A stretch of DNA of 64,000 nt from Clostridia bacterium (GTDB lineage: Bacteria > Bacillota > Clostridia > Christensenellales > SZUA-584), in contig JABGQS010000011.1 of NCBI GenBank assembly GCA_018648645.1, positions 1,328 through 65,327 on the forward strand. Reading direction: 5' to 3'. A model generated the notes under the pieces. The model did not search any database and had not been told where the DNA came from. It saw only the letters and a list, made by a program, of their open reading frames with translations. The position numbers and the translations under genes are program-made. Positions 12,756-53,641 of the stretch are shown here, piece by piece; position 1 is the first letter of the stretch, and each line of letters starts with the position of its first letter.

Positions 12756-12772
12756 TAGGAGGAAACAATATT

Positions 12773-18301: not shown

Positions 18302-18331
18302 AACCGCCCCATCCTGCTTCATTTGTCTGTA

Positions 18332-29756: not shown

Positions 29757-29785
29757 TTGACGCCACACCGGCAAAACTGTATTAT
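29757..29785 (+). promoter_or_regulatory. Sigma-A-type promoter for the SpoIID-dockerin/cohesin pair
   Basis: TTGACG (29757-29762), 17-nt spacer, TATTAT (29780-29785). Confidence 0.5.
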
Positions 29786-29819
29786 TATAATACGTCAAAT
29801 TCCTTATAAAGGATACACT

Positions 29820-34920: not shown

Positions 34921-36261
34921 CTACAGCGTGTCTTTGCGCTTGCCGCCGCCTTTTTTCTTGTTTCGGTGCAGAAGAATCGGTACTGTAATTGCCGCTGCGA
35001 CTACCAGCAGCCCCAGCGCGCCGATAATGATATACAGCGCGAGGTTTTCTATGGGTTCGGGTTCTTGCTGTGCCGCGTTTTGCTCCGCTTCGCCCGACGA
35101 TTCAGCGCTTTGCACAGTCGATGACGGTAGTGGCGATGGCGTCACGGTCGGGGCGGCTGTCTCTTCCGTCTCGGTTACAGCAGGCATCGGGGTTTCCTCC
35201 GGCTCTATGACGGTAATGCGAACGCTATTTGTCTCTTTAGATTCGCTCTCGCCACCTAAGGAGGCTATTACTACATAGCTTACATCAGTCGTTTCGAATA
35301 TGTGTGCATTTAGTCTTGCGTAGCCCTCGCCACCGGTTGGATAAGTTCCAAGCGTTGCCACAAGACTTCCTTCAGCATCTCTTATCTCGAAAGAAGTGTT
35401 GTCGTCGCCGGTGTTTGTAAACTCTGCCAAAAACTCGACCTCCTCGCCTGCCTCTATCTCTGTCTTGTCGGCTGAAAGTACGCAGTCAAAATCTATGTCG
35501 GGTTCGGGCGCGCGTACTTCGAGAAGCACCAAATAATCCGCCTCGGCGTATCTCTGCCCCATCATTGTATAGGCAACGCTGTACCCAACCTCACACATCC
35601 CTACGTCCTGCTCCGTGAATGTATGCGTCATCACCACTTCAGCGCTTGACTCAGGCATAATCATTGCGAAGTGCTCTGTCTGCCTGGTTTCTCGTATCGG
35701 GTTTGCAGAATGGAAAAGAGCGTGCGCATCAACGTCTGTTGCAGCATTTGCTTCAAACTTATTATGAAAGCTGTAAGTCAGCGTTATGGTCTGCCCCAAA
35801 AGATAGTACTCGGAATCAGGCGATATCGATACTGTGCCGTCAAAAATATCGTGCGTTCCCTCAACCCGAATAGTGCGCACCCAAGTGCCGTCCCAATTAC
35901 TGTCAGCATCATTTTCGATTTTTACTGTCAGCAGCTTGTCCGCATTTACGTCATCTCTGCCAAACGGTACTTCGAACAGCAGCCATGGGGTTGTAGTGCC
36001 AACAGCTATCGTTCTGACTCTATCATATCGGTAACCGTCCATAGTGGTCACTTCGACACGGATTGCCGTAATCGGCGTCAGTCCTTCGTTGTGCACCCGC
36101 AGACGAATCCCAATATCCGCGCCCTTATAGCCGACCACCTCCGGTGTGATTGTATAATCAACATCAAAGTCATCTATACTCGCGCTTGCGGGCATGGGCG
36201 CGGCCAAGCAAACAGCAAGCAAAAGTACCATCGCCAATATTACAAAAACCGTTTTTTTCAT
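34921..36261 (-). CDS. Type-I membrane-anchored surface protein with repeated Ig/CARDB-like domains (paralog 1)
   Basis: Signal peptide 'MKKTVFVILAMVLLLAVCLAAPMPASA'. Beta-rich domains with the 'V.V.N.G' pattern. Pro/Thr stalk, TM helix 'LYIIIGALGLLVVAAAITVPILL', basic tail. ORF open to 36378. Confidence 0.75.
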   Translation of the reverse strand: MKKTVFVILAMVLLLAVCLAAPMPASASIDDFDVDYTITPEVVGYKGADIGIRLRVHNEGLTPITAIRVEVTTMDGYRYDRVRTIAVGTTTPWLLFEVPFGRDDVNADKLLTVKIENDADSNWDGTWVRTIRVEGTHDIFDGTVSISPDSEYYLLGQTITLTYSFHNKFEANAATDVDAHALFHSANPIRETRQTEHFAMIMPESSAEVVMTHTFTEQDVGMCEVGYSVAYTMMGQRYAEADYLVLLEVRAPEPDIDFDCVLSADKTEIEAGEEVEFLAEFTNTGDDNTSFEIRDAEGSLVATLGTYPTGGEGYARLNAHIFETTDVSYVVIASLGGESESKETNSVRITVIEPEETPMPAVTETEETAAPTVTPSPLPSSTVQSAESSGEAEQNAAQQEPEPIENLALYIIIGALGLLVVAAAITVPILLHRNKKKGGGKRKDTL

Positions 36262-36420
36262 AGGAATGCTCCAAAGACTGTATTGCGTATGTCCAGAGCG
36301 CAAGTTGACGAAAGTTTCAGTTAAATAATTATACCTTATTATACCATATGCAGCGAATAACAACAACGCAGCGGGCAAAGCTAAAGACTTGAAATAACGC
36401 AGGTCTTTGCTTGTTTTGTG

Positions 36421-38912: not shown

Positions 38913-39842
38913 ATGAGCTTCAAAATCAAGAACTTTACAATGCGCGCTTTTAACAACGATGTCAACAACACCGGCAATTTAAGCGACAAATACAGCGATT
39001 GGTCGGCATACAGAAACGATGTCACACAATTTGTGAAAAGCGCAGCCCACGGGTCGCAAGACGCAAAAAGCATTATCGTACTTGGCTCTGGCGAGTGCAA
39101 CGATGTTGACCTAAAGTTTCTTTTGGACAATTTCGAGCGTGTCGTTTTGACGGATGTGGACGAGCAGAGCATATATGACGGAATCGCGCGGCAGGGAATT
39201 GCGGATGCGATGCGATTCGAGGTTTTTCAAACCGAATACACCGGGCTGGAAAACGCAGGTTTCTTTGACACTTTATCCGCGCTTTGCAGCGATAACACAC
39301 CCGTGCTCGAGATCTGCGAGTTCATCAAAAACGCTCTCACCAATGTGCGCTCTGCCGATATGAGCAAGCTGGCGGAGGGCGGTTTTGACGTCGTCCTCTC
39401 CTGCCCCATATACACTCAGATTTTGTTTACGCAGGCTGAGGTGCTTATGGAAATCCTCGCGCACTACAGCACATATTCACACGATGATATGCACATGCTG
39501 CTGCAAAGCGTCAGCAATAACATGCCCGCGCTCATAAAGAAGTACAACGATCTGCTGTTGTCCGTGACGAACCCGAACGGCAAATTAGTCGTGCTTTCGG
39601 ACGTAATCGAGACACACCCCGACGGCGAGCTTGTGCAAACGATAAGCGAAATACTTGCCGCGCAGCCGGTGGACAGCCATGCGCTGGAGCACTTGATTCA
39701 CGGCCATGGTCTTAAGTTCGGGACGCTCGGCAGGCACGACCTTCTTCACAAAACCGATGTAACCGATTCCCTATGGTGCCTCTGGCCGTTTGACGAGAAT
39801 CGGCATTACTTGGTCAGCGGCATTCTCGCAAGCAAAAAGTAG
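38913..39842 (+). CDS. Hypothetical protein, possibly a Rossmann-fold SAM-dependent methyltransferase
   Basis: GGAGG ribosome-binding site. 'IIVLGSGECND' (motif-I-like) and 'VVLTDVDEQS' (motif-II-like). The function call is weak. Confidence 0.45.
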   Translation: MSFKIKNFTMRAFNNDVNNTGNLSDKYSDWSAYRNDVTQFVKSAAHGSQDAKSIIVLGSGECNDVDLKFLLDNFERVVLTDVDEQSIYDGIARQGIADAMRFEVFQTEYTGLENAGFFDTLSALCSDNTPVLEICEFIKNALTNVRSADMSKLAEGGFDVVLSCPIYTQILFTQAEVLMEILAHYSTYSHDDMHMLLQSVSNNMPALIKKYNDLLLSVTNPNGKLVVLSDVIETHPDGELVQTISEILAAQPVDSHALEHLIHGHGLKFGTLGRHDLLHKTDVTDSLWCLWPFDENRHYLVSGILASKK

Positions 39843-40034
39843 GCGGTTTTTCGCACCGTTTTTTGTTATGTTTTTCACATCACACTATAATTACTGCGTA
39901 TCGTCGCATTTTGCACTGTTAGTGTCGGCAAACTTTTTAATCTCAAAAAAGCCCATAAACACAGGGCTTGTCCTGTTTACATCCCTTTTGAATATCGATA
40001 AATATTAAGTTTTGATAACTCGCCTTAATTGATA

Positions 40035-40063
40035 TTGACATTGTTATTTATTTATCGTAATAT
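40035..40063 (+). promoter_or_regulatory. Near-consensus sigma-A promoter of the ArsR/Mbx-like operon
   Basis: TTGACA (40035-40040), 17-nt AT-rich spacer, TAATAT (40058-40063). Confidence 0.6.
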
Positions 40064-40437: not shown

Positions 40438-40923
40438 ATGAAAAAAACAATTTCTACATTTCTGGTTTTGTTGGCCATATGGGTGCTGCTCACAGGTTTT
40501 AACTGGATGGAAGTCGTTCTTGGCGCGGCCGTATCATTAGTGCTTGCCATTATTATTTCCAGATTCGTAAACTATTCATTTGGCTTTGGCATTATCCTTG
40601 GACTAATCAAGTTTATCGTAATCTACATTCCGGTCTTCATATTTAAACTTGTGCTTGCCAACATTGATATCGCTTATCGGGTGCTAAGCCCAAAGCTTCC
40701 TATCAACCCCGGCATAGTGAAAGTCCCGACAAAACTGAAAAGCGACTTTGGCAAATTCGTGCTTGCAAACTCTATCACGCTGACACCGGGCACACTCTCG
40801 CTAGACGTTGAAGATGACGAAGTGATTGTGCATTGGGTTAACGTAAAAGGCAAAACTTCGGGCGAGCATCAAAGCAGAATTTCCAAAACGTTCGAGAAAC
40901 TGCTTGGAGGTATAGTCAAATGA
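40438..40923 (+). CDS. MrpE/MnhE-like subunit (MbxA position)
   Basis: 'ANSITLTPGTLS' MnhE signature. N-terminal TM helices. ATGA overlap with the next gene. Confidence 0.85.
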   Translation: MKKTISTFLVLLAIWVLLTGFNWMEVVLGAAVSLVLAIIISRFVNYSFGFGIILGLIKFIVIYIPVFIFKLVLANIDIAYRVLSPKLPINPGIVKVPTKLKSDFGKFVLANSITLTPGTLSLDVEDDEVIVHWVNVKGKTSGEHQSRISKTFEKLLGGIVK

Positions 40924-41174
40924 TTATAAACATCATTGTATTTTCGCTGGTTGGCGTTGGCGTGCTGTTCGCGCTGATTCGGCTAATCGCCGGTCCGACC
41001 GCGTTCGACAGAGTCGTAGGGCTCGATACGCTCAACATCATCATCACTGCAACTGTTGTGCTGCTGGCGCTGGTGCTAAAAAACGAGCTGTATCTCGACA
41101 TAGCGATTGTATACGCGGTTCTTTCATTCCTTGAAACCATACTATTCGCTAGATTTTTGGAGGGCAGACGATGA
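40920..41174 (+). CDS. MrpF/MnhF-like subunit (MbxB position)
   Basis: 84 aa, three TM helices, 'IAGPTAFDRVVGLDTL'. Confidence 0.85.
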   Translation: MIINIIVFSLVGVGVLFALIRLIAGPTAFDRVVGLDTLNIIITATVVLLALVLKNELYLDIAIVYAVLSFLETILFARFLEGRR

Positions 41175-41482
41175 TTATTACTTCTTATATATTAATGATA
41201 ATAGGCGCGATTTTTCTGGCACTAGGGGGCTTTGGCGTTTTTAGAATGCCGGACGTATATAACCGCATCCAAGCCGGAACGAAAGCAACCACGCTGGGTG
41301 CGTTCGCGCTGATACTCGGTGTCGGGTTCGCTGAACCCAGCTGGTTTCTAAAAATCGCACTCATCATCGTGTTTATCGCGATAACCAACCCGGTCGGAAG
41401 CTCTACGCTTGCCCGGGCGGCCTACAAAAGCGGTGTTAGCGCAACGCTTTTGCAAAAGCAGAAAGAAGGTGAAGACAAATGA
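41171..41482 (+). CDS. MrpG/MnhG-like subunit (MbxC position)
   Basis: 'FRMPDVYNRIQAGTKATTLG' MnhG/PhaG motif. Confidence 0.85.
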   Translation: MIITSYILMIIGAIFLALGGFGVFRMPDVYNRIQAGTKATTLGAFALILGVGFAEPSWFLKIALIIVFIAITNPVGSSTLARAAYKSGVSATLLQKQKEGEDK

Positions 41483-41733
41483 CAATTCTGCAAATCGTTG
41501 AAATTGTTGTCGGTGTCGCCATGATTGTCTTCGGAATACTGGCAATCAACACCAAAAAATTAATCAACTCGGTCATCTTCCTCTCCGTCATAAGCATGCT
41601 CGCTGTGGTGAGCTTTATGCTGATGAGAGCGCCCGACGTTGCCATCACAGAAGCGGTTATAGGCTCCGGGCTCGTAACGGCAATCTTCGTGTTCACGCTG
41701 TATACTACGAAGAAAGCAGGTGAGAAGATATGA
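41479..41733 (+). CDS. MbhD/DUF4040-family subunit
   Basis: 84 aa, three TM helices, 'RAPDVAITEAVIGSGL'. Confidence 0.8.
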   Translation: MTILQIVEIVVGVAMIVFGILAINTKKLINSVIFLSVISMLAVVSFMLMRAPDVAITEAVIGSGLVTAIFVFTLYTTKKAGEKI

Positions 41734-42488
41734 AACAAGTAGTATCTATACTGTTAGTATTAGCAGTCGGCTTCTTCATCTTCTCCGCGCTATACTTCCC
41801 AAACCAAGGAGACTCCGCGTTTGACAGCTATGGCGAAGTGGATTTGGACGAGCGCGTATCAAGCAGCTTTATCGACAAAAACGTAACAGGCGAAAATGAC
41901 GAAGTGGTGTTTGGAGAGTCGGCAAACCTTGAAGACGGCTCGGCAAACTACGTCACGTCAGTCATCGTCAACTATCGATCGTTCGATACGCTTGGCGAAG
42001 TCACCGTGCTGTTCATCAGCGCATTCGGCGTTGGACTGCTGCTAAGCGGACGCCGCAAGAAGCAGGCTTTTGCGCATCAACCAAACTTCATACTCAAATA
42101 CGGCGCACGTCTTGTGTTTGGCATCATGGTCATCTTCGGTGTCTATATGTTCTCTCACGGACACTTGGCACCGGGCGGCGGTTTCCCCGGCGGCGCAATC
42201 ATTGCCGCGGCACTCTTGCTGCTGTATCTCGCCGACAACGACTTTAGGGCAAAGATGAAAGCGTTCAAAGTAACCGAAGGCATCGCAGGCAGCATATACG
42301 TGATTCTGGGGCTTCTCGCCATCGTGATTGGCGGCTACTTCCTGATGAACTTCCTGCCCACCGGCATCGTCGGTACGATATTCAGCGCAGGTCTCATCCC
42401 AATCATCTACGTGTTGATTGGTCTCAAGGTCGGCAGCGAAATCGCCGGCATCGTAGACAGTTTCCTGACAGTGGAGGTGGAGAAATGA
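41730..42488 (+). CDS. MnhB/MrpB-like subunit
   Basis: 'NYRSFDTLGEVTVLF' and 'GHLAPGGGFPGG' motifs. Confidence 0.85.
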   Translation: MKQVVSILLVLAVGFFIFSALYFPNQGDSAFDSYGEVDLDERVSSSFIDKNVTGENDEVVFGESANLEDGSANYVTSVIVNYRSFDTLGEVTVLFISAFGVGLLLSGRRKKQAFAHQPNFILKYGARLVFGIMVIFGVYMFSHGHLAPGGGFPGGAIIAAALLLLYLADNDFRAKMKAFKVTEGIAGSIYVILGLLAIVIGGYFLMNFLPTGIVGTIFSAGLIPIIYVLIGLKVGSEIAGIVDSFLTVEVEK

Positions 42489-42820
42489 TACAGTATCTTT
42501 CAATTGCACTGATGTTGGTCGGAATATATGGGCTGCTTAGTCAAAGAAACATGATTAAGCTCATCGTTTCGCTCAACATCTTCGAAATCGGACTCAATAT
42601 CTTCATTGTTTCCATCGGGTTTGTGAAGGACGGTCTCGCACCGATTCTGACATCGAACCATAACAGTTCCGCATTGCTTTATGTCGATCCGCTGCCTCAA
42701 GCAATGGTGCTGACAGCAATCGTCATCGGCGTTGGCATTACAGCGCTCGCATTGGCGCTCGCACGAAAGCTATACAAAACGCACGGAACATACGAATTAG
42801 ACGAAATGGAGGGCGAATAA
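42485..42820 (+). CDS. MrpC/NuoK-like subunit
   Basis: 111 aa, three TM helices, 'DPLPQAMVLTAIVIG'. Confidence 0.85.
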   Translation: MIQYLSIALMLVGIYGLLSQRNMIKLIVSLNIFEIGLNIFIVSIGFVKDGLAPILTSNHNSSALLYVDPLPQAMVLTAIVIGVGITALALALARKLYKTHGTYELDEMEGE

Positions 42821-42821
42821 T

Positions 42822-44255
42822 ATGAATCCAGCTCTTTTGATAGCAGCTCCATTACTAGCTGCGTTTATCGCAGTAATATTCAAAAAGATTGACAAAGTTG
42901 TCCTTGGGGTTGTCGCAGTCGGCAACATCGCCTACAGCATTGTCATGGCTGTGCTTTTCACAGGCGCGACGCAAATAGCGATTGGCGGGTTTGCACCGCC
43001 GTTTGGCATCAGCCTCGTTTTGGACAGCTACAGCTTAATCGGCATATTGCTGGTCAACGTCGCGTTCGGTCTCATCCTGTTGATGGGCACCAAGCTGGTT
43101 GGCAGATACGGCATCGTGTTGGCGGTCTCGCTGGCAGCGCTTAACGGCATCGTGCTGACAGGCGACTTGTTCAACCTGTTCGTGTTCATCGAGGTTGCGG
43201 CAATCAGCGCATACATCATGACAACAATGAACAAGCAGCTAAAGCACACGTTTAATTATCTGATACTCGGCACTTTGGCTTCGGGACTGCTGCTGTTTGG
43301 CATCGCGGTGCTATACAACATGTTCGGCTCGCTGAACATCATCGACATTGCTAGCAAACTTGCGATCTCCGGCGTTTCTGCCGGCGCAATGGTGCTGCCG
43401 ATAGTGTTTATCTTCGCAGGACTGTCGGTCGAAGCCAAGCTGATTCCGTTTGGCGGTTGGGTGCGAGGCGTGCTGAAAAAAAGCAACAGCCTTGTCGGAC
43501 CATTGCTGGTCACGGGCTATGCCGCCGCGATACTTTTGGTGTTCGGCAGGCTGACAAGCACCATCTTCATAATGAGCGACGGGCTTAAAATCGCACTCAC
43601 CGTTGTCGCAGTGGCAACGCTGGTGCTTGCGGAGTTCACGGCGTTCAGCAAAAAGAACCTGCGAGAAGTGCTGTTGTTTAGCAGCATCGCACAGTCAGGG
43701 TTGGTCGTCGCGCTTTTCCTAAACGGATTAACGGTGGCAGCGATTCTCGTGCTGGTCAACAACGTTGTCAGCAAACTCGTGCTGTTCGCGCTCTCGGCAA
43801 AAATCGCGGACGACACCGGCACAGACAAAATATCCGAGCTAAAGGGCGTGTTCACAAAATACCGCGTGCTTGGCGTAGGGTTCACAATCGCGGCAATGTC
43901 GCTGATTGGTCTGCCGATGTTCTTTGGCTTTGTCGCCAAGGCACAGGCAGTAATGTCGCTGTTTGAAAGCGGCAACCTATGGCTTCCCGCCGTCATCCTC
44001 CTCGTGAGCGTGATCGAAGGAATCTACATTATAAGAATACTAACAACGCTTTGGAACTCGGGCAAAGAAGGACAGGTTCCAAGCAAAGATGCGCAAAAGG
44101 AATACAAGTTAAACGGGTTTGTGAAGGTGAGCATCGTAGCTCTCGTCATCGGCGTTCTAATCGTCGCCGCGGGTATCCTTCCCATTACAAACATAAAAGA
44201 GTTTTTGAGCTCAGATTTCCTGTCATTTATAACGCGCAGCATGGGAGGTGTTTAA
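42822..44255 (+). CDS. Antiporter-like subunit 1 (divergent MrpD/NuoN family; MbxH position)
   Basis: 477-aa polytopic protein with the NuoL/M/N-type helix pattern but weakly conserved core motifs. Confidence 0.75.
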   Translation: MNPALLIAAPLLAAFIAVIFKKIDKVVLGVVAVGNIAYSIVMAVLFTGATQIAIGGFAPPFGISLVLDSYSLIGILLVNVAFGLILLMGTKLVGRYGIVLAVSLAALNGIVLTGDLFNLFVFIEVAAISAYIMTTMNKQLKHTFNYLILGTLASGLLLFGIAVLYNMFGSLNIIDIASKLAISGVSAGAMVLPIVFIFAGLSVEAKLIPFGGWVRGVLKKSNSLVGPLLVTGYAAAILLVFGRLTSTIFIMSDGLKIALTVVAVATLVLAEFTAFSKKNLREVLLFSSIAQSGLVVALFLNGLTVAAILVLVNNVVSKLVLFALSAKIADDTGTDKISELKGVFTKYRVLGVGFTIAAMSLIGLPMFFGFVAKAQAVMSLFESGNLWLPAVILLVSVIEGIYIIRILTTLWNSGKEGQVPSKDAQKEYKLNGFVKVSIVALVIGVLIVAAGILPITNIKEFLSSDFLSFITRSMGGV

Positions 44256-46091
44256 ATGGGTATTAGTATAGGAGTCGGCACTATAATCGTAGGACTGCTG
44301 ATTAGCGCAGTGCTTGCGTACGTGCTCACGAAAATCAACAAAACAACCGGAGCTTGGGTAACTGTACTCGCACCTTTCCTCGCGCTTGCCGCAGTATTTT
44401 TGCTGCGGGACAGTATAGGCACCACCTACTCGCTGTTTTTCCTCGAGTTCGAACTTACCGAATACGGCTGGTTCTTCTCGATGATTATGCTTCTTGTGTT
44501 TGCCTGCGTGTCGTTCTTCAACGTCTACTGGATGAAAAAGATGGTCCACCCGGCAGCTTACAACATGCTGTATCTTTTGGCACTCACGGGCACGCTTGGT
44601 GCTTTCATGGCAAAGGATTTCATCGGGCTGTTCATCTTCTGGGAAATGATCGTGTGGTCATCGATGTTCATTATACCGTTTGGCAAAAGCAGAAAGGCGT
44701 CTGTCGTGTACTACGCGTTTAGCGCGCTAGGCTCGCTCGCCATGCTATACGGTATATTCTATCTGTACAACGCATTTGGCAGCTTCAACATACAAGAAGT
44801 GCTAAAGCTGGCTGCGACAGACACGACGGCGGCGCTCGTCGCGTTTATCACCATCGGCATCGCCGGTATGGTAAAGCTCGGCGTGTTCCCGTTCCATCTG
44901 TGGCTGCCACGTGCGCACGGCAACGCACCCGACACCTTCTCCCCGATACTCTCGGGCGGGCTGGTCAAGGCGGGCGGCTTCGCTGTGTTCCTGATCGCTG
45001 TGGTCATGCCGTCATACGAAGCGTTTGCGACGCAGCTGCAGTTTATGGGCGTGTCGATAACAAGCTACATATTCATACTGTTTGGCGCGGTCAGCATTGT
45101 TGTGGGCACGCTGATGGCTATCAAGCAGGATGACTTCAAGAAACTAATCGCATACTCGTCCGTGGCCAATGCGGGCTACATCATCATTGGTCTTGCAATG
45201 ACAGACGCACTAAGCGTCGGCGGAGCGTTTATGCACATATTCGCACACGCACTGGCAAGCGCTGCGGCCTTCCTTGCGGTGGCTGCGGTGTCGCACAGAA
45301 CGGGCACAACCAAAATGAGCGAGCTTGGCGGTCTGATACACAGAATGCCGCTGACCTACCTCGTATACCTTATCGCGATTATATCGATGGCGGGCATACC
45401 GCCGATGGCCGGCTTCATCAGCAAATGGATGCTGTTCCAGTCGATGATCGATAACGGTATGGTGTTTGTGGCAACGGCTGCGTTCTTTGGCAGCATCGGC
45501 TCGTTCCTCTACGTGTTCCGCCCATTATCCGCTGTGTTCTTAGGGCAGCTTTCACCAAAGCACTACAAAGTCAAGAAAGCGCCTGTGCTGATGATGATTC
45601 CGATGATTATACTATCGGGCTTGACAGTGCTGTTCGGCATTTTCCCGAACATCGTGCTTCGCATCGTCAGCAGGATACAAACTTCGGTTGGCATGGAAGG
45701 CTTGCAGTTTGACGGAACAAAGATTATCGGAAGCAACGGGTCGCTTGACCCGACGCTGATTGTGGTGATATTCGGTATCGGCTTTATGATTGCGCTGGTT
45801 ATCTTCCTGCTCCATCCGAAATCGAGAAAAGTGGAGCTTATGGACACGTACACAGCTTCTGAGTTTATCTATACACCCGAGCTGCTGCATTACTCGCACA
45901 GCTTCTATGCGCCGTTCGAGCGTCTGTATAAAAACGCGCCCGACACAAGCAAGTGGTACAAGGCGATATTGAAAAAAGTGTCCGAGATTGGTGGATTCGT
46001 CAGCTACGCGTTCTTTAGCAGCAAACCGAGAATTGTGGTTTTCTGGATAGTGATTGCGATGGTAGCATTATTGTGGGGTGGCAGCGTATGA
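44256..46091 (+). CDS. Antiporter-like subunit 2 (MrpD/MrpA/NuoL family; MbxH' position)
   Basis: 'FWEMIVWSS' and 'FPFHLWLPRAHGNAPDTFSPILSGGLVKAG' are a classic proton-antiporter-M core. Confidence 0.85.
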   Translation: MGISIGVGTIIVGLLISAVLAYVLTKINKTTGAWVTVLAPFLALAAVFLLRDSIGTTYSLFFLEFELTEYGWFFSMIMLLVFACVSFFNVYWMKKMVHPAAYNMLYLLALTGTLGAFMAKDFIGLFIFWEMIVWSSMFIIPFGKSRKASVVYYAFSALGSLAMLYGIFYLYNAFGSFNIQEVLKLAATDTTAALVAFITIGIAGMVKLGVFPFHLWLPRAHGNAPDTFSPILSGGLVKAGGFAVFLIAVVMPSYEAFATQLQFMGVSITSYIFILFGAVSIVVGTLMAIKQDDFKKLIAYSSVANAGYIIIGLAMTDALSVGGAFMHIFAHALASAAAFLAVAAVSHRTGTTKMSELGGLIHRMPLTYLVYLIAIISMAGIPPMAGFISKWMLFQSMIDNGMVFVATAAFFGSIGSFLYVFRPLSAVFLGQLSPKHYKVKKAPVLMMIPMIILSGLTVLFGIFPNIVLRIVSRIQTSVGMEGLQFDGTKIIGSNGSLDPTLIVVIFGIGFMIALVIFLLHPKSRKVELMDTYTASEFIYTPELLHYSHSFYAPFERLYKNAPDTSKWYKAILKKVSEIGGFVSYAFFSSKPRIVVFWIVIAMVALLWGGSV

Positions 46092-47044
46092 TTACGATAA
46101 TAATAAGTATCTTAATAGCGCTCGGCATATTGGTGTTTGCGTTCCTATGGCAGACAACGCTGAGCGGAATAACAAGAAAAATTGTGGGCAGATACCAAAA
46201 GCGCTACGGTCCTAGGTTCTACCAGAACTTTAGAGACATCTTCAAAGCGCTGAGCAAACGCGGTATCACGCACGGATGGGTGTACAGCTTTGGCGTTATC
46301 ATGGCGGTCGGCGGTATCATGGCAACGGTCATGTTCCTGCCCCTGTTCGGCATCGTGCCGTTCCCGGGCGTAGACAACTTCTTCATCTATGTCTACCTGT
46401 TCGCTGTCGGAATGCTTGGCATGGCGATGAGCGCTGTAGGCTCGGGCAACCCGCTTGCCGGCATCGGCGTTATGCGCGCACTCACGCAAATGGTCGGCTA
46501 CGAAGTGCCGTTCATGATTGTAGTATTAGCGATGATATACGGACACGGCACAAGCTCATTGTCAGAGCTTGCGGCAATCCAGCAGACATCGGGCTTTCTT
46601 AGCTGGAACCTCGTCAAAATGCCGATTGGCACTATTGTCGGGTTTATATGCCTGCTTGGAATGCTTGGCAAAAAGCCGTTCGAGACCTTTATCGCACCCG
46701 CAGAGATTGCTTCTGGTCCGATGGTCGAATACGGCGGCAAGCAGCTTGGTATGCTGATGATTATGCACGAGCTGGCGACGTTTATCGAAATCAGCTTGTT
46801 CGTAAACTTGTTCCTTGGCGGCGCAACACCGATAGTGTTTGGCGAGACAACCGTGCTAGTCGGGCTTTCATCAGTCGTTGGGTTCCTGCTCAAATACTCT
46901 ATTGTATATATAGTGAGCGCGCTGATAAGCAACGCACTCGGACGATTCAAAATAGACCAAGTTATAAAATACTTCTACAAAGTGCCGATCGTTTTGGCGA
47001 TTATCCAAGCATTGATTGTAGTGTTCCTGGGATGGGGGGTATAG
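46088..47044 (+). CDS. NuoH/HycD/MbhM-like membrane subunit
   Basis: 'RKIVGRYQKRYGPRF' signature. ATGA overlap with the preceding stop. ORF open from 46073. Confidence 0.85.
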   Translation: MITIIISILIALGILVFAFLWQTTLSGITRKIVGRYQKRYGPRFYQNFRDIFKALSKRGITHGWVYSFGVIMAVGGIMATVMFLPLFGIVPFPGVDNFFIYVYLFAVGMLGMAMSAVGSGNPLAGIGVMRALTQMVGYEVPFMIVVLAMIYGHGTSSLSELAAIQQTSGFLSWNLVKMPIGTIVGFICLLGMLGKKPFETFIAPAEIASGPMVEYGGKQLGMLMIMHELATFIEISLFVNLFLGGATPIVFGETTVLVGLSSVVGFLLKYSIVYIVSALISNALGRFKIDQVIKYFYKVPIVLAIIQALIVVFLGWGV

Positions 47045-47047
47045 CAG

Positions 47048-47608
47048 ATGAGTAAAAAAGAAAGAGCTGTAGCAAAACGAAAAAAGAAATGGGATGGCAT
47101 AAGCAACTTCTTTAGAGCCAATTCCATATGGATGCTGATGTATTGTACGGGGTGCTGCGCGATCGAGCTTCCTCAAGCCATGACCAGCAAATACGACATG
47201 GAGCGCCTTGGCATGGGCCCAATGGCAACGCCAAGGCAAGCCGACGTTATATTGGTAACAGGTTACCTTAGCGTAAAAACGCTTAGGCGCGTCATCTATG
47301 CTTACGAGCAAATGGGCGAGCCGAAATATTTGGTGGCGTTTGGCCCTTGCACAATCAACGGCGGCATCTATTACGACGCGCATCCGGTCATCAAGAGTCT
47401 TGACCAGTACCTGCCGATAGACGTATATATCGCAGGTTGTATGCCAAAGCCCGAGGCCGTAATGAACGGGTTCCAAGACTTAATTGATATGATTAAGCGC
47501 AAAGAAGCCAACGGATGGCGCAAGTACCAAGAGAACAAGGAATGGTACAGAGAAAATCAAATTCACGCGCTTGGCGAGCTGCGCATTAAGGATGAGTTCC
47601 ATGAATAA
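47048..47608 (+). CDS. NuoB / hydrogenase small-subunit-like [4Fe-4S] subunit (MbxJ position)
   Basis: 'GCCAIE', 'GPCTINGG' and 'GCMPKPE' give the four Cys of the N2-type cluster. Confidence 0.9.
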   Translation: MSKKERAVAKRKKKWDGISNFFRANSIWMLMYCTGCCAIELPQAMTSKYDMERLGMGPMATPRQADVILVTGYLSVKTLRRVIYAYEQMGEPKYLVAFGPCTINGGIYYDAHPVIKSLDQYLPIDVYIAGCMPKPEAVMNGFQDLIDMIKRKEANGWRKYQENKEWYRENQIHALGELRIKDEFHE

Positions 47609-48119
47609 TATAATTAAAGAATTTGTTGATAATGTGACTGCAAAGTTTGAACTTATGGGCGTCGATTATCCGGCAGACCTGCAAGTCTCGCTCGACTTTG
47701 ACCAGCGTGACATTCACAACGCGCTGGCGTACATAAAAGGCGCAGGCTGGACGCAGATGTCTCTATTGACGTGTGTGGACTGGATAGCCGATAATGAATT
47801 TCAATTGGTGTTTATACTGTTCAATTGGAAAAACGGCGTGCGGTTGCAGGTGCGTACGCGGATTGACCGCGACAAACCTGTTTTCACGACGATCACGAAC
47901 ATATACCCCGGTGCGCAGTACTACGAACGCGACGTGCACGAGTTTTTCGGTGTCGAGTTTGAGGGAAATCCCGACTCGTACAAGCAGCTGTTCCTAGAGA
48001 ACTGGGACGATATCCCGCCGCTGAGAAAAGACTTCGACGCGATTGCTTATTCGGACAGAAAATACCCCGCAAGAAAATACAAAGCGAATTTCAGCACGGA
48101 AGCAGGTGAGAGCAAATGA
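47601..48119 (+). CDS. NuoC (30 kDa)-like subunit (MbxK position)
   Basis: 'YYERDVHEFFGVEFEGNPD'. ATG 47601 overlaps the upstream stop. ORF open from 47571. Confidence 0.85.
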   Translation: MNNIIKEFVDNVTAKFELMGVDYPADLQVSLDFDQRDIHNALAYIKGAGWTQMSLLTCVDWIADNEFQLVFILFNWKNGVRLQVRTRIDRDKPVFTTITNIYPGAQYYERDVHEFFGVEFEGNPDSYKQLFLENWDDIPPLRKDFDAIAYSDRKYPARKYKANFSTEAGESK

Positions 48120-49222
48120 AAGAAGTAAAACTTTTTGTTGGACCACAGCATCCGGGAATGCACGGCAACGCAAGTATTCATATGTACGTTGACGGCGATA
48201 TTATAAACAGGGCTTATTTGCTTCCGGGAATGCTTCACCGAGGTTTCGAAAAATCGATGGAGAAGCGCACGTGGATGAACAACATCGCGCTGATACCGCG
48301 CATTTGCGTGCCCGAACCCGACACAAACGAGATGGTTTACGCGATGAACATCGAAGCGCTGGCCAATATCGAAGTGCCGGAGCGAGCGCATTGGATTCGC
48401 ATGCTGGTGCTTGAGCTTGCTCGGCTCGCTATCCATTTGATGGCGTTTGGCGGCTGCGGCGGCCCGACAGGGCTGTACACTGCAATGTACTGGGCGCAGG
48501 CCGACAGAGACGGCATCCTCGAGCTGTTTGAAGAGATCTCCGGACAGCGCATATATCACATGTATATCGTTGCAGGCGGCGTTCGCAAAGACCTGCCAAA
48601 AGGCATCGAGAAAAAGATCATAGCGTATATTGACGACCTTGAGGCTAGGCTTCCCGACTATGAGGAGTTGGTACTCAACAACCCGTCGATACGAAAAAGA
48701 CTTGTAGACAACATCATTCTTCCAAAAGAAGTGGTTTGGGAGCTTGGCGTTACGGGTATCGGCATGAGAAGCGCAACAGGCGAGCCGTACGACCTGCGAA
48801 AAGTGACACCTTATGCAAGATACGACAAGGTGGAGTTTGACGTGCCGACAGCAACGTATTCGGACGCACAGACCCGAATGACGCTAAAGTACTTAGAGAT
48901 GTACCAGACGATTCGCATCATCCGCCAAGTGCTGGACATGATGCCAAAAGGCAAAGTCAGGGCCAAAGTTGACGACGGAAGCGCGCTGAGATGGAAAGTG
49001 CCTGCAGGTCAGGTATACAGCGCAGTCGAAGCGAGCAGAGGCGAATACGGCTACTACACTGTGTCCACAGGCGAGCTGATGCCATACCGCGTGGCGGTGC
49101 GAGGAGCGTCGTTCCCGCAAGGTCTGCTGGGGCTGGAGAAATACTTACCGGGTCACAGAATTGACGATGCACCACTCTGGTTTGACACGATGGGCATCTG
49201 TTCACCGGAAATCGATAGATAG
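48116..49222 (+). CDS. NuoD / [NiFe]-hydrogenase large-subunit homologue lacking two of the four Ni-Fe cysteines (MbxL-like)
   Basis: 'GPQHPGMHG' N-terminus. The N-terminal ligand motif reads 'RICVPE' (Cys64, Glu67) and the C-terminal motif reads 'GICSPEIDR' (Cys362, Glu365). Confidence 0.85.
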   Translation: MKEVKLFVGPQHPGMHGNASIHMYVDGDIINRAYLLPGMLHRGFEKSMEKRTWMNNIALIPRICVPEPDTNEMVYAMNIEALANIEVPERAHWIRMLVLELARLAIHLMAFGGCGGPTGLYTAMYWAQADRDGILELFEEISGQRIYHMYIVAGGVRKDLPKGIEKKIIAYIDDLEARLPDYEELVLNNPSIRKRLVDNIILPKEVVWELGVTGIGMRSATGEPYDLRKVTPYARYDKVEFDVPTATYSDAQTRMTLKYLEMYQTIRIIRQVLDMMPKGKVRAKVDDGSALRWKVPAGQVYSAVEASRGEYGYYTVSTGELMPYRVAVRGASFPQGLLGLEKYLPGHRIDDAPLWFDTMGICSPEIDR

Positions 49223-49234
49223 GAGCGAAAGCAA

Positions 49235-51058
49235 ATGAGTAAAAATAGTATAATTGCCCCATTAAAGGGCTGGAAGTATCTGTTCAAGAAACCCATTAGC
49301 GTTCCTATGGATGACATCTTTAAGAACCCTAGAGAGTCTCGTGATAACTATAGAGGCTTTCATGTGAACGATTGGGAAAAATGCATCGGCTGCGGCACGT
49401 GCGGCGAAATCTGCCCGACCAAAGCAATCACGATGGTCGAGCGCGGCGAGATCGAGGAGAAAGACGGCGTGAAAGCAGAGCGTCCTGTCGTAGACTACGG
49501 CAGGTGCTGTTTCTGTGGCTTGTGCGTGGATATCTGCGCATCGGGTTCGCTGAACATGACCAAAGGTTATCTGTTCAATTCATCCGACCCTGAGAACTAC
49601 ATTCACATGCCGAGGGAATTGGACATCACGGGCAAGGAGCATAAACTCGGCTACGTGAAAGACGAGTCTTCGGACTTGCTTGACCTAGAGCGCAAGCACA
49701 TGGAGCAAGTGGATCCGGGCGAACGCAAAAACTCGTTTGTCGAAATTGTTCGCGGTTTTTCTAAGCAGCAGGCAATTGCCGAATCCGCAAGATGTGTGGC
49801 GTGCGAAATCTGCACAAAAACGTGCCCTGCCAACATGAACATCCCCGATTACATTAAAACCATTTGGGACGACAAAGTTGAAGACGGGCTGGAGATACTA
49901 TACGAAACAAATCCGCTGCCGTCGGTGTGCGGTCGCATATGCACACACATGTGCGAAGACGCTTGCGCAATCGGCAACCGCGGAGACGCAGTCGCTATAC
50001 GATGGCTAAAGCGCTATATCGTGGACAACATGCCGGACGAGCAGTACGAGAAGCTGGCACTGGCGAGCGTGTCTAAAAAAGGCAACGGCAGAGTTGCAAT
50101 CGTGGGCGCAGGCAGCTCCGGGCTTTCGGCCGCGTATTATCTGACAACGCTAGGATACGAAGTGGAAATGTACGAGAAGCTGCCACTAGCCGGCGGACCG
50201 ATGCGCTACGGCGCGCCGCGATATCGCCTGCCCGACGACGTTGTTGACAAGGATATCGGCTTTATCGAAAAGCTCGGTGTCAAGATTAACACCGGCGTGG
50301 AAATCGGTAAAAATATTATGCTCGGAGAGCTTAAAGATAAGTTTGACGCTGTGTTTGTCGCGACAGGATATCCGCACACGCAGCACCTCGATATCGAAGG
50401 CAGCGAGCACAACGACGTCATTGAAGCGATGGATTTCCTGGAGGAATCTGCAGATTATGTCCGCGGTGTTTCCGCTATGCCGGACATTGAAGAAAACGTA
50501 GTGGTCATCGGCTCGGGCAACGTTGCTTTCGACGTAGCGCGGACGCTGATACGCTTCCAGAACGAGAAGTTTGGCAAGTCTAGTGTGATGATGATGGCGC
50601 TTGAGCGCGAGGATCAAGTCCCCGCAGACGCCGAGGAAGTTGAAGAAGGCACAGCCGAAGGCATCATATTTAACCTAGGCTGCGGACCGCAGAAAATCGA
50701 CATCAACGAGGATACAGGTGCTGTTGCTTCTGTCGAGGCGCACGCTTGCACACGGCTGTTTGACGAAAAGGGCAAGTTCGCTCCGGTGTTCGACCCAAGC
50801 ATCACGCAGTGCGTTATCACCAAGCAGGTTTACTTGGCTATCGGTCAAGTTCCCGACTTTTCATACATCAGCGACGAGCTTCAATCGAAAATGGACTTAA
50901 CCGGCGGCAAAATCAAAGTGGGTCCGCTCGGCGAAGTGAAAGGCATGCCTTGGCTGTTTGCAGGCGGCGACATCGTGCACGGCATGGACATCATCAACGG
51001 CGTGGCCGACGGTCACAAAGCGGCGCTCGGTATCGACAAGTACCTTTCGAAGAAATAA
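49235..51058 (+). CDS. Fusion of a NuoI/MbhN-like 2x[4Fe-4S] domain with a GltD/SudA/NfnB-type NAD(P)H-FAD oxidoreductase
   Basis: 'CIGCGTCGEICP' and 'CCFCGLCVDICA' (NuoI-like). 'RCVACEICTKTCP' and 'CGRICTHMCEDAC' (GltD N-terminal clusters). 'VAIVGAGSSGLSAA' (FAD), 'VVVIGSGNVAFDVA' (NAD(P)H), 'FAGGDIV'. Confidence 0.85.
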   Translation: MSKNSIIAPLKGWKYLFKKPISVPMDDIFKNPRESRDNYRGFHVNDWEKCIGCGTCGEICPTKAITMVERGEIEEKDGVKAERPVVDYGRCCFCGLCVDICASGSLNMTKGYLFNSSDPENYIHMPRELDITGKEHKLGYVKDESSDLLDLERKHMEQVDPGERKNSFVEIVRGFSKQQAIAESARCVACEICTKTCPANMNIPDYIKTIWDDKVEDGLEILYETNPLPSVCGRICTHMCEDACAIGNRGDAVAIRWLKRYIVDNMPDEQYEKLALASVSKKGNGRVAIVGAGSSGLSAAYYLTTLGYEVEMYEKLPLAGGPMRYGAPRYRLPDDVVDKDIGFIEKLGVKINTGVEIGKNIMLGELKDKFDAVFVATGYPHTQHLDIEGSEHNDVIEAMDFLEESADYVRGVSAMPDIEENVVVIGSGNVAFDVARTLIRFQNEKFGKSSVMMMALEREDQVPADAEEVEEGTAEGIIFNLGCGPQKIDINEDTGAVASVEAHACTRLFDEKGKFAPVFDPSITQCVITKQVYLAIGQVPDFSYISDELQSKMDLTGGKIKVGPLGEVKGMPWLFAGGDIVHGMDIINGVADGHKAALGIDKYLSKK

Positions 51059-51079: not shown

Positions 51080-51110
51080 AAAAAGACCTGCAAAGTGCAG
51101 GTCTTTTTTT
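51080..51110 (+). terminator. Strong terminator closing the 13-gene operon
   Basis: aaaaagacctgca-aag-tgcaggtcttttttt. Confidence 0.8.
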
Positions 51111-51745: not shown

Positions 51746-53641
51746 TCAGCTTTCGGGTGTCTCCGCCATCCTCGATGCAGCAGGTCCGTCTCCGTGCCAG
51801 TCGGGCAGAGAAACCTCCTTTGGGCTCATACCACCCTCGTTATATATCATTCTCGGCTTGGTCACAAACAGAAAATTGTACAGCCTTTCGCGCTCGCCGT
51901 TGGTAATTTCGCCAAACTTATAACCTACTCTTCGTTTTCCATCTTCCTCTTTGCTTTCAAACACCACGCTTCCGGTCAAATTAATCGCACCGTCCGGCAA
52001 GCGAACGTTGATGCTTTTTACGTTGGATAAATCGCACTGCTCTGCCAACGTCAAGCTGGCGCCCCCTCGCGAAATGTTGCCGACTTGTATCGTGTTTCTG
52101 CCTCCGCACGCACCGTCGACCCAACCGTTCAAGCTCACGTCAAATCTGTAATCCTGCCGCGCATACTTCTTCTTGAAAACCTCGTACAGCGCGAGTGCAA
52201 GCACCGTGATGTTGAACGCTGACCAAAAGAGTGCGACTACAACAGCGGCTGTTGAAGGGTATGATACGAGCACATTCCATATTGAGTTGACAGATGCGAA
52301 TATAATCGACACGATCAAAATCAACAGTATAGCAATTTGCACGTTGAGCGCGCGCCTGTCCTTTTTCTTGACAGATGCGCTTGCAGATTTCGGAGTCACT
52401 TTAAATATATTTTTTGACCAAAGCAGCGAGAACGAAGCTTTGATAAATGTAACCATTTTAAGCGTATTGAATTTCTCAACCGAGAAATACTTGAAATATC
52501 CGCGACCAATCGCTTTGTTGGTCAGCATGCTCAGCAAGAAATACGGCAGCCAGTGCAACAGAAAATCGAGCCCGCCCGTCACCTTTAGCGGCATAATGCC
52601 GGTCAAAAGCAGTATCGCGGGCGTCAGCAGATAAATCAGTTTCTGGTATGCATCGAAATACGTAAATATCGCGGCAAAGTGCGACAAACGCTGCCTCCAT
52701 TTTAAGCCGCGCTTTATCAGCGGATTGTCCTTGCTTCTAAATATCTTCATCGAGCCCTGCGCCCATCGCAGACGCTGAACAGAAAACGCGTGGAACGACT
52801 GCGGTGCAATTCCAAACGCCAGCGGCTCGTCGTGATAGCAAATCTTCCACCCCTTCGCGTTAAGCCGAATAGACGTCAAAAAATCCTCAGTAATACAATC
52901 TGTCGCAACACCGCCAACGTCCATTATCGCCGCTCTTCGGAGTATAGACGGGCTTCCGCACCAAAACGCTGCGTCGATGTTGTTTTTCCCGGGTTGTATC
53001 ACGTGATAGAAAAGCTGCTGCTCGTGCCAAAAAGAACCCGCCTTTTGATGCTGCATCGAATCGAGGTTAAAAAACTCCTGCGGCATCTGAACAATCGCTG
53101 TCTTTTTATTTCTGAAATAGCCGAGCGTCTTCTCAAGAAAATCGGGCTGTGGCACCATATCAGCGTCCACCACCACCACAAACTCGCCCTTTGTTTTGCT
53201 TAGCGCTTCGTTTATATTGCCGGCTTTCGCGTGCGTGTTTTTTTCTCTGCTTAAATAACCGCAGCCCATTTTTGCAGCAAGCTCACGAACCTCTTCGCGA
53301 TGCCCGTCATCCAGCAAATACGTTTTGTGCTCCATTCTCATGCGCATACAGCCGACTATCGTGGCTTCAAGAACGTGCAAATCTTCGTTGTAGGTCGGCA
53401 CAAACACATCAACGCTCACGCCCCGGAGCGCCTTTTGCGGCTTAATTTTATCGGTTTTCCAAGTCATCATCACAAACAGGAAAAAGTTGATGACGCCCAT
53501 AATTTCCGCAATCAACAAAACAACGGAAAAAACCATAGCCGCCGGGTTTAGCGTATACAGCCCTCTCCAAATGATATAATAAATAATATAAAGTCCAGTT
53601 ATAATGGACAGTAAATGTATGATGCGCTTCTTATACAGCAA
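51746..53641 (-). CDS. BcsA-like family-2 glycosyltransferase with a C-terminal PilZ domain (TTG start)
   Basis: 'VPTYNED', 'VVDADMVP', 'ITEDFLTS' and 'QRLRWAQG' (D,D,D,QxxRW). PilZ motifs 'RQDYR' and 'NISRGG'. GGAGG lies 8 nt upstream of TTG 53641. Confidence 0.85.
   Translation of the reverse strand: MLYKKRIIHLLSIITGLYIIYYIIWRGLYTLNPAAMVFSVVLLIAEIMGVINFFLFVMMTWKTDKIKPQKALRGVSVDVFVPTYNEDLHVLEATIVGCMRMRMEHKTYLLDDGHREEVRELAAKMGCGYLSREKNTHAKAGNINEALSKTKGEFVVVVDADMVPQPDFLEKTLGYFRNKKTAIVQMPQEFFNLDSMQHQKAGSFWHEQQLFYHVIQPGKNNIDAAFWCGSPSILRRAAIMDVGGVATDCITEDFLTSIRLNAKGWKICYHDEPLAFGIAPQSFHAFSVQRLRWAQGSMKIFRSKDNPLIKRGLKWRQRLSHFAAIFTYFDAYQKLIYLLTPAILLLTGIMPLKVTGGLDFLLHWLPYFLLSMLTNKAIGRGYFKYFSVEKFNTLKMVTFIKASFSLLWSKNIFKVTPKSASASVKKKDRRALNVQIAILLILIVSIIFASVNSIWNVLVSYPSTAAVVVALFWSAFNITVLALALYEVFKKKYARQDYRFDVSLNGWVDGACGGRNTIQVGNISRGGASLTLAEQCDLSNVKSINVRLPDGAINLTGSVVFESKEEDGKRRVGYKFGEITNGERERLYNFLFVTKPRMIYNEGGMSPKEVSLPDWHGDGPAASRMAETPES

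Follow-up and report, generated by a model that had tools for sequence, protein, structure and literature searches.

Remnant Ni-Fe site motifs in an MbxL/MbsL-type subunit of a flavoprotein-fused operon from a Clostridia bacterium

What becomes of a [NiFe]-hydrogenase active site when only two of its four metal-binding cysteines are left? The question is raised by the L gene (48116-49222, +) of a 13-gene operon in a stretch of 64,000 nucleotides from a Clostridia bacterium (contig JABGQS010000011.1). We refer to this whole stretch as the window. An earlier note on this DNA had reported that both Ni-Fe ligand motifs of the encoded large-subunit homologue read C-x-x-E, and had taken the change for a newly remodelled active site. 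Our analysis leads to a different view. L is very probably the MbxL/MbsL-type subunit of a membrane-bound oxidoreductase of the Mrp-Mbx kind, which 13 genes encode in a bacterium of the class Clostridia, and its C-x-x-E motifs are the remnant of a Ni-Fe site.

Former Ni-Fe ligand positions in the L subunit

The open reading frame (ORF) of L is intact. Its translation is a NuoD-like protein of 368 amino acids (aa), which contains ALIPRICVPEPDT and ends in TMGICSPEIDR before the stop codon (tag, 49220-49222). Motif 1 (RICVPEP) holds Cys64 (tgc, 48305-48307) and Glu67 (gaa, 48314-48316). Motif 2 (GICSPEIDR) holds Cys362 (tgt, 49199-49201) and Glu365 (gaa, 49208-49210). Translation and codon positions thus agree with the motifs as first reported. 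With R62-x-C64-x-x-E67 and C362-x-x-E365-x-x-R368, L reproduces exactly the spacing of the hydrogenase motifs L1 (R-x-C-G-x-C) and L2 (C-x-x-C-x-x-R).

Could the motifs be an artefact, produced by sequencing errors or by the decay of a hydrogenase pseudogene? There is practically no chance of this, and we rejected it. The frame is intact and lies in an intact operon whose stop/start junctions overlap. A protein 100% identical to L is present in public databases. Among the 120 closest homologues of L (65-100% identity), 119 carry R[IV]CVxEP and 119 carry the C-terminal C-x-P-E-I-D-R. The motifs are therefore under selection and not decaying, as the earlier note had argued.

To compare the ligand positions we used an alignment of L, MbsL of Pyrococcus furiosus and the 150 best representatives of 50%-identity clusters, obtained when 1.84 billion cluster representatives were searched exhaustively with HMMER. 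Fourteen of these representatives have all four cysteines (RVCGICSHIH ... DPCFSC.DR), and their cysteines fall in the same columns as Cys64, Glu67, Cys362 and Glu365 of L. Hence the four positions of L are homologous to the cysteines that bind Ni-Fe in true group-4 hydrogenases, which the earlier note had presumed.

Homology of position does not make L a hydrogenase, true or cryptic, and we rejected this possibility on four properties of the sequence. The L1 motif (R-x-C-G-x-C-x-x-x-H) retains the first cysteine only: the window has R62-I-C64-V-P-E67-P-D-T, the four-cysteine representatives have R[VI]CGICSHIH. The L2 motif (D-P-C-x-x-C-x-x-R/H) is altered as well, with G-I-C362-S-P-E365-I-D-R in the window and DPCFSC.DR in the representatives. 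The proton-transfer Glu of the H-P-x-x-x-E-P loop (MbhL E21) is absent, the loop being HPGMHGN in the window and HPALKEP in hydrogenases. Finally, L has no match to the profile NiFeSe_Hases (PF00374); its only Pfam match is PF00346, Complex1_49kDa (hmmscan, E <= 0.001). Genes for hyp proteins or a maturation protease were not seen among the Pfam-scanned ORFs of the window.

Compared with MbhL, EchE and HycE, L has the same fold and the same place in the peripheral arm of a complex-I-like assembly. It also keeps the R-x-C...C-x-x-...-R framework, including Arg62 and Arg368. However, only two of the four Ni-Fe cysteines are left, and the similarity to these hydrogenase subunits is much weaker. 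With the first and third cysteines kept, L would be unable to bind a Ni-Fe centre because the second and fourth ligand positions are carboxylates. We thus infer that the metal is absent and that L would not work as a hydrogenase.

The best solved relative of L is P. furiosus MbsL (6U8Y chain L, E 6.9e-85), to which it is 41.4% identical (BLASTP). It is followed by NDUFS2 (~6e-67), MbhL of MBH (6cfw_L, 1.1e-34) and Escherichia coli HycE (7z0s_E, 8.5e-25). Six subunits were compared in this way (H, H', M, J, L and the N part), and each has its best solved match in MBS (6U8Y). In a neighbour-joining tree, which is approximate, window L falls inside the Mbx/MBS clade, apart from the NuoD-like sequences and from those with all four cysteines (CCCC). 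Thermococcales MbsL is nested among bacterial GltD-fused lineages in the same tree, and the window clade forms a separate deep branch. One source names an L homologue of 71% identity 'Membrane bound protein complex subunit mbxL [Marinitoga]'. Both the best match and the tree confirm the resemblance to Mbx/MBS that had been suspected from the sequence.

The resemblance extends to the motifs. MbsL carries the identical RICVPEPD and ends in NCPPDIDR (HMMER alignment), so that C64/E67/C362/E365 of L pair with C85/E88/C385/D388 of MbsL. The lineage that shares the motifs thus includes MBS itself, with C-P-P-D at the C-terminus. Both proteins have carboxylates at the second and fourth ligand positions; the fourth is Glu in window L and Asp in MbsL. 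The two systems further share the order of their 13 genes, a full Mrp module and two antiporter-like subunits. They differ in the beta1-beta2 loop, which is HPGMHG in window L and HMAT-E in MbsL, and in their hosts: the window comes from a mesophile-type Clostridia genome, whereas MBS belongs to a hyperthermophilic archaeon.

For MBS, the fate of the site has been described. According to the structure paper, two of the four MbhL cysteines are lost and C85 and C385 remain beside the proximal cluster; a subcomplex with MbsL C85A/C385A keeps polysulfide reduction (PMC7684303). The cysteine pair has been called a vestige that is unable to coordinate a cluster (PMC8165549, PMC7684303). The first and third ligands are retained in mbx and mbx-like NuoD homologues (PMC4758237), and the cysteine pairs have been used to tell hydrogenases from their paralogues MbxL, FuoD and NuoD (PMC6085437). 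The vestigial site is therefore known (PMC7684303, PMC8165549, PMC4758237, PMC6085437), and finding it here is real but ordinary. The idea of a newly remodelled active site has to be given up: MbsL has the same motif, and its double mutant still reduces polysulfide.

Which residues of the motifs are constrained? We determined residue frequencies across 78 Mbx-like loci. Arg62 and Val65 are present in 100% of them, Pro66 in 78% and Pro364 in 96%. Cys64 is found in 79% (otherwise A, N or S) and Cys362 in 61% (Tyr in 29%, otherwise V or T). Position 67 is E or D in 100%, and position 365 is E or D in all loci that have the position. The cysteines are dispensable in evolution, in agreement with the MBS mutant data. 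Any functional constraint that the motifs carry throughout the family would fall on the carboxylates rather than on the pairing of Cys with Glu. A mutational test of the conserved carboxylates was not found in the literature examined.

The apparent symmetry of the two C-x-P-E motifs, which had been taken as a sign of remodelling, does not survive this comparison. It is superficial because Glu at the fourth position is also the commonest residue in complex I-type proteins, where it is the majority state of the NuoD-type representatives (DAVE, DSVE, NSVE); moreover, the cysteines are often replaced. The proline noted before the first Glu does not hold for all close relatives of L, which have V (65), P (43) or I/A/L (11) there.

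The same frequencies bear on another explanation, in which Cys64, Glu67, Cys362 and Glu365 bind a different metal (mononuclear Fe, Ni or Zn, with Cys2Glu2 ligation) as a new catalytic or redox centre. The residues do sit at the four Ni-Fe ligand positions, both carboxylates are D or E throughout the 78 loci having the position, and the motif hardly varies within the clade of the window. A conserved four-ligand site is, however, incompatible with the many members that have A/N/S at the first and Y/V/T at the third position. In MBS the cysteines are a vestige, and the C85A/C385A variant is active (PMC8165549, PMC7684303). We consider a new metal centre very unlikely.

In public databases the protein goes under another identity. 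The NCBI name of the identical protein is 'NADH-quinone oxidoreductase subunit D', and together with the Complex1_49kDa match this would make L a quinone-reducing NuoD of the complex I/NDH type. The fold does not help to decide. An AlphaFold2 model of L as a single chain has the NuoD/MbsL fold (predicted local distance difference test, pLDDT, 83.8; predicted template modelling score, pTM, 0.86). It adds no resolution because Foldseek gives template modelling (TM) scores of ~0.87 to 6u8y_L and to the complex I 49-kDa subunits alike. L also resembles NuoD, Nqo4, NDUFS2 and NdhH in having Glu at the fourth former-ligand position and a His where these proteins bind quinone: His16 (48161-48163), in the loop GPQHPGMHGN, aligns with NDUFS2 H59 and Nqo4 H38. 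This His is kept in 111 of 120 close L homologues; the residue at its position is E, T or V in MbsL and in the majority of the other Mbx clades. In addition, subunit J has a Cys-Cys doublet like that of cluster N2.

However, the partners of His16 are missing. Val65 occupies the position of the quinone-binding Tyr (Nqo4 Y87) and Pro117 that of the Asp partner (NDUFS2 alignment), and because both are replaced, the His16 site is not a quinone site. In complex I the first former-ligand position is D/N, the second A/S/G and the third V/I, whereas L keeps the first and third Ni-Fe cysteines. The membrane arm is of another kind too. The membrane genes of the operon are of the Mrp/MBS type (MnhE, MrpF, MrpG, MbhD, MnhB), and by Pfam assignments and gene order the operon contains neither NuoA/J/N nor NuoEFG, the NADH-input module of complex I. 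All subunits compared are far nearer to MBS than to complex I. We therefore rejected NuoD on its pocket residues and type of membrane arm, and regard this identity as improbable in the extreme. The public name is misleading.

Operon, flavoprotein fusion and distribution

The 13 genes (40438-51058, +) are tightly packed in the order A-B-C-D-E-G-H-H'-M-J-K-L-N (Table 1). Subunit H' aligns to 6u8y_X over residues 10-603 of its 611, and its next match is MbhH of MBH (1.7e-47). The start of the mbxK-like gene is listed as TTG at 47571; an alternative ATG at 47601 keeps the family match. The hairpin behind the last gene is likely a bidirectional terminator that closes the operon, judging from its pattern. 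An Rfam scan of the window returned one transfer-messenger RNA (tmRNA) and one tRNA only, and no riboswitch in the 600-nt operon leader.

Table 1. Features of the Mrp-Mbx operon with window coordinates, strand and supporting evidence
Feature	Coordinates	Strand	Evidence
mbxA-like, MnhE/MrpE-type, first gene of the operon	40438..40923	+	Pfam MNHE 2.4e-40; first in related loci too
mbxB-like, MrpF-type	40920..41174	+	Pfam MrpF_PhaF 6e-18
mbxC-like, MrpG-type	41171..41482	+	Pfam PhaG_MnhG_YufB 8.6e-25
mbxD-like small membrane subunit	41479..41733	+	Pfam MbhD 1.1e-17
mbxE-like, MnhB/MbhE-type	41730..42488	+	Pfam MnhB 6e-21, MbhE 4e-8
mbxG-like, NuoK/MrpC-type	42485..42820	+	Pfam Oxidored_q2 2.3e-24
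mbxH-like antiporter-type (MrpD-like), 477 aa	42822..44255	+	Pfam Proton_antipo_M; best solved match 6u8y_H (MBS) 4.3e-45
mbxH'-like long antiporter-type (MrpA-like core and C-terminal extension), 611 aa	44256..46091	+	6u8y_X (MBS) 8.8e-68
mbxM-like, NuoH-type anchor of the peripheral arm	46073..47044	+	Pfam NADHdh 2.3e-55; 6u8y_M 5.2e-55 vs MbhM 1e-17
mbxJ-like, NuoB-type, predicted carrier of the proximal [4Fe-4S] cluster	47048..47608	+	6u8y_J 4.5e-64, gapless alignment
mbxK-like, NuoC-type	47571..48119	+	Pfam Complex1_30kDa 1.1e-27
mbxL/mbsL-like, NuoD-type, vestigial Ni-Fe site	48116..49222	+	6u8y_L; E-value and identity to MbsL in text
mbxN fused to NfnB/GltD-like flavoprotein, 607 aa	49235..51058	+	Pfam Fer4_20 3.1e-29, Pyr_redox_2 4.9e-19, Fer4_9
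G+C-rich palindromic hairpin, 13-pair stem, A-run and T-run flanks	51080..51108		consensus scan, pattern match only
Candidate promoter hexamers of the sigma-70 type, ahead of gene mbxA	40029..40063	+	TTGACA-17-TAATAT, 10/12 matches, pattern only

The last gene distinguishes the operon from archaeal MBS. Residues ~1-120 of N form a 2x[4Fe-4S] domain of the NuoI/MbsN type (6u8y_N, 2.3e-27 over residues 3-118). Residues ~160-607 consist of Fer4_20 and an FAD/NAD(P)H-binding domain and match NfnB and GltD; the matches in the PDB are 5jca_L (NfnB, 1.4e-63 over residues 160-606) and 4YLF chain B (7e-62). In archaeal MBS, where MbsN takes up electrons from ferredoxin, it is a stand-alone protein of ~200 aa without a flavoprotein, whereas window N is fused to this NfnB/GltD-like part of ~450 aa. 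The likeness to NfnB/GltD/PreT (5JCA chain L, 4YLF chain B) covers the C-terminal 450 aa and includes the two-cluster Fer4_20 domain and both Rossmann motifs. Unlike those proteins, the window module shares its polypeptide with a NuoI/MbsN-type di-cluster domain and is part of a membrane-anchored complex. It also differs from NfnB in lacking a gene for an NfnA-like partner and in the replacement of the Y-R-R that binds the 2'-phosphate.

This replacement concerns the choice of nucleotide. At the pyridine-nucleotide site (residues ~449-460) the window has MMALERE and NfnB has ILYRRTR. Among 60 fused loci that were aligned (L001-L075), ~42 share the [A/S/C]-[L/M]-E form, which comes with a short insertion; the NfnB-like Y-R-R-R is found in 17. 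The general Rossmann rule suggests that the first class would use NAD(H) and the second NADP(H). The nucleotide of the window complex would then probably be NAD(H), because the NADPH-type Tyr-Arg-Arg is replaced by Ala-Leu-Glu.

A gltD-related flavoprotein in place of NuoI has been reported for mbx-like operons of Thermotoga and proteobacteria (PMC4758237). Thermotoga maritima Mbx, Mesotoga Theba_1796-1808 and the proteobacterial homologues have the same GltD-type architecture as the window and keep the first and third Cys (PMC4758237). Window L is 70-72% identical to proteins of Marinitoga, Petrotoga and Tepiditoga. The differences lie elsewhere: Thermotogae J has CTGCG and the window clade CTGCC, and the nucleotide site of the window is A-L-E rather than Y-R-R. 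Many proteobacterial and spirochaete loci also have a rubrerythrin gene at the end of the operon. It is absent in the window, where the hairpin is followed by genes on the opposite strand. In the literature, a terminal rubrerythrin-like gene is described as frequent but not obligatory in mbx-like operons.

How common is the fused architecture? A locus scan with one genome per species returned 80 loci. Most of them have the same gene order, A-B-C-D-E-G-H-H'-M-J-K-L-N (tblastn), and in 62 of the 80 a single ORF encodes both N and the GltD-like part. The 80 loci come from Clostridia, Tenericutes, Spirochaetes, Bacteroidales, Cloacimonadota, Planctomycetota, Thermotogae and many sulfur-oxidising Gammaproteobacteria. 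Loci of Thermococcus, Desulfurococcales, Campylobacterota and Synergistota lack the fusion. The genomes nearest to the window belong to an uncultured 'Anaerofustis sp.' (84%) and to 'Candidatus Limiplasma' (83%).

The genes directly 3' of the fused N vary. In many proteobacterial, spirochaete and other loci (L009, L012, L013, L017, L019, L023-L026, L030, L040, L044, L047, L052, L062, L065, L066, L068 and L070) a similar ORF of ~145-190 aa follows, which the window does not have. The ORFs of L012 and L040 match Pfam Rubrerythrin; the others were assigned to this group by visual comparison of their N-terminal sequences. In the Bacteroidales locus L058 the next gene encodes a protein of the dihydroorotate-dehydrogenase family (PreA-like), and the N-termini of the corresponding proteins in L061 and L067 (Bacteroidales) look alike. 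In L045 an HdrA/MvhD-like protein takes this place. In L018 it is a Put_DNA-bind_N plus CoA_binding protein, a domain pair that we take to be associated with a Rex-type redox regulator. These genes hint at lineage-specific partners of the flavoprotein module.

Proximal cluster and possible reaction

The pocket of L faces the question of how its neighbour J holds the proximal cluster. Window J has the motif C33-T-G-C36-C37 (~47144-47158) together with Cys101 and Cys131, whereas MbsJ has C25-T-G-C28-G. In the gapless alignment C33, C36, C101 and C131 take the positions of MbsJ C25, C28, C93 and C123. The additional Cys37 stands where complex I has the second Cys of its N2 doublet; such tandem cysteines ligate cluster N2 (PMC8165549). 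A pattern search found the motif in 115 of the 120 close J homologues listed. In 93 of these 115 it reads CTGCC, and the named carriers are Firmicutes, Tenericutes and Izemoplasma-type genomes. J of Thermotogae and Haliovirga has CTGCG, and most other loci have CTGCG or GTGCG. The Cys-Cys doublet of J and the complex-I-like His16 of L are new observations, specific to this clade.

From the order of the domains we infer a linear wire. Electrons would pass between NAD(P)H, FAD, the 2x[4Fe-4S] of the GltD-type part, the 2x[4Fe-4S] of the N domain, the [4Fe-4S] cluster of J and finally the L/J/M pocket. By homology with P. furiosus MBS, the chemistry in the pocket would be carried out by the proximal [4Fe-4S] cluster of J. 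In MBS, whose characteristic activity is a ferredoxin-dependent reduction of polysulfide coupled to a Na+ gradient, catalysis has been proposed to take place at the MbsJ proximal cluster, which has three Cys ligands only (PMC7684303). Cys64 and Cys362 would lie next to this cluster without a catalytic part. Redox turnover would drive the translocation of H+ or Na+ through the Mrp-type arm (H and H').

Which reaction would feed this machine? Our tentative answer, which we hold to be close to evenly balanced, is that the pocket reduces sulfane sulfur (polysulfide) with electrons from NADH and/or ferredoxin and that this reduction is coupled to ion translocation. We favour it because the proposed path gives each conserved module a role, because it parallels the gain of an NADH-input module by complex I, and because the proximal-cluster motif is kept across the family. 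The family is also concentrated in lineages that reduce or store elemental sulfur (S0), which is a further reason; Thermotogae, Thermococcales, Desulfurococcales, Campylobacterota and sulfur-oxidising symbionts are such lineages. The last reason is that mbxA of T. maritima is induced by S0, rising 4.4-fold (PMC9431562).

Several points weigh against sulfane sulfur reduction. The transfer of electrons from NADH to polysulfide would yield about 10-12 kJ per 2 e- (standard-potential estimate), which is little for two antiporter-like subunits. In the window clade, Cys37 of J could complete a four-Cys ligation of the proximal cluster and so remove the open iron site that the MBS mechanism needs. 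No genes of sulfur metabolism or for redox partners were found near the operon in the window. The geometry of the pocket cannot be read from the model of L, where both pocket loops are poor (residues 10-16 and 53-63, pLDDT <50). A biochemical study of a GltD-fused bacterial Mbx was not found in the literature searches, so the reaction is deduced from relatives. Lastly, the Riftia symbiont co-expresses its Mrp-Mbx genes with the reductive tricarboxylic acid (rTCA) cycle (PMC11636981), which would fit a ferredoxin-supply role as well.

The last point leads to the main alternative, which we judge possible but somewhat less likely. The complex may be an Rnf-like, ion-translocating ferredoxin:NAD(P)+ oxidoreductase. 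Ferredoxin would dock at the N domain and electrons would leave through the GltD/NfnB-like flavoprotein, so that the L/J pocket has no substrate chemistry and is only a redox-sensing or coupling element. The fusion does place an NAD(P)-binding module beside clusters that accept electrons from ferredoxin, and the rTCA co-expression in Endoriftia fits an interconversion of ferredoxin and NAD(P)H. By estimate, the free energy from ferredoxin to NAD+ suits a module with two antiporters better. Judging from its genes for fucose isomerase, aldolase and FGGY kinase, the host seems to ferment sugars and would then have to re-oxidise ferredoxin. Such a function is also the older proposal for Thermotogae Mbx (PMC4758237; Schut et al. 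2013, as cited in 10.1101/322537).

However, an Rnf-like complex leaves the strictly conserved J/K/L/M module without a chemical role, and it has no use for the three-cysteine-type proximal-cluster motif that most loci have (CTGCG/GTGCG). It does not account for the presence of the family in many lineages that reduce or store S0. The same proposal for P. furiosus Mbx was dropped once polysulfide reduction had been demonstrated (PMC7684303, PMC8165549).

Surroundings of the operon and meaning for the family

The neighbours of the operon are housekeeping, sugar-catabolism, cell-wall and sporulation genes. Directly upstream lies a gene for a 309-aa protein (38913-39842, +) with no Pfam match. In the 'Candidatus Limiplasma' locus, a homologue of this protein (L002, 13159-14109; 34% identity, E 2e-69) is encoded immediately 3' of the corresponding operon. 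The protein may be a conserved neighbour of the operon with an unassigned role.

On the other side, a gene on the opposite strand (51746-53641, -) converges on the operon terminator. Its product is a cellulose-synthase-type glycosyltransferase of family 2 (631 aa) that carries a PilZ domain at its C-terminus, probably an exopolysaccharide synthase controlled by cyclic di-GMP. Farther away, the product of 29757-31568 (+) joins a SpoIID domain to a C-terminal type-I dockerin, an unusual pairing of a sporulation lytic enzyme with cellulosome-type anchoring. Long ORFs (335-551 aa) without a Pfam match (E <= 1e-5), which we regard as putative genes, lie at 12644-14299, 17222-18322, 28636-29643, 31582-32811 and 34921-36378. 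At the start of the window, the tmRNA gene (2075-2439, -) adjoins a phage-type integrase (803-1837, -), and guanine-plus-cytosine content is 35.5% in the first 2 kb as opposed to ~50% elsewhere. This part (803-2439) resembles the border of a mobile element that has inserted at ssrA.

What do the motifs mean for the family? The C-x-x-E motif is the textbook mark that separates MbxL/MbsL from the large subunits of [NiFe]-hydrogenases, and automated hydrogenase screens already make use of it. The carboxylates are constant across the family and the cysteines vary, which can guide the choice of residues for mutagenesis. The Cys-Cys doublet of J bears on whether the open-iron mechanism of MBS applies to the window clade at all.

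A more far-reaching idea is rather unlikely. Bacterial Mbx of the GltD-fused form could represent a 'complex I' that was invented independently, with five [4Fe-4S] clusters leading from the nucleotide module to the old Ni-Fe pocket, and the Firmicutes/Tenericutes clade could have modified that pocket. If so, the pocket would combine an N2-like Cys-Cys doublet and a His at the Nqo4 H38 position with the two retained vestigial cysteines and the two invariant carboxylates. The electron acceptor of the clade would in that case be something other than polysulfide. Alternatively, the carboxylates and cysteines would relay protons or persulfide in a way not paralleled in archaeal MBS. The GltD-fused complex is very widespread, and its reaction would be either the reduction of sulfur or the exchange of electrons between ferredoxin and NAD+.

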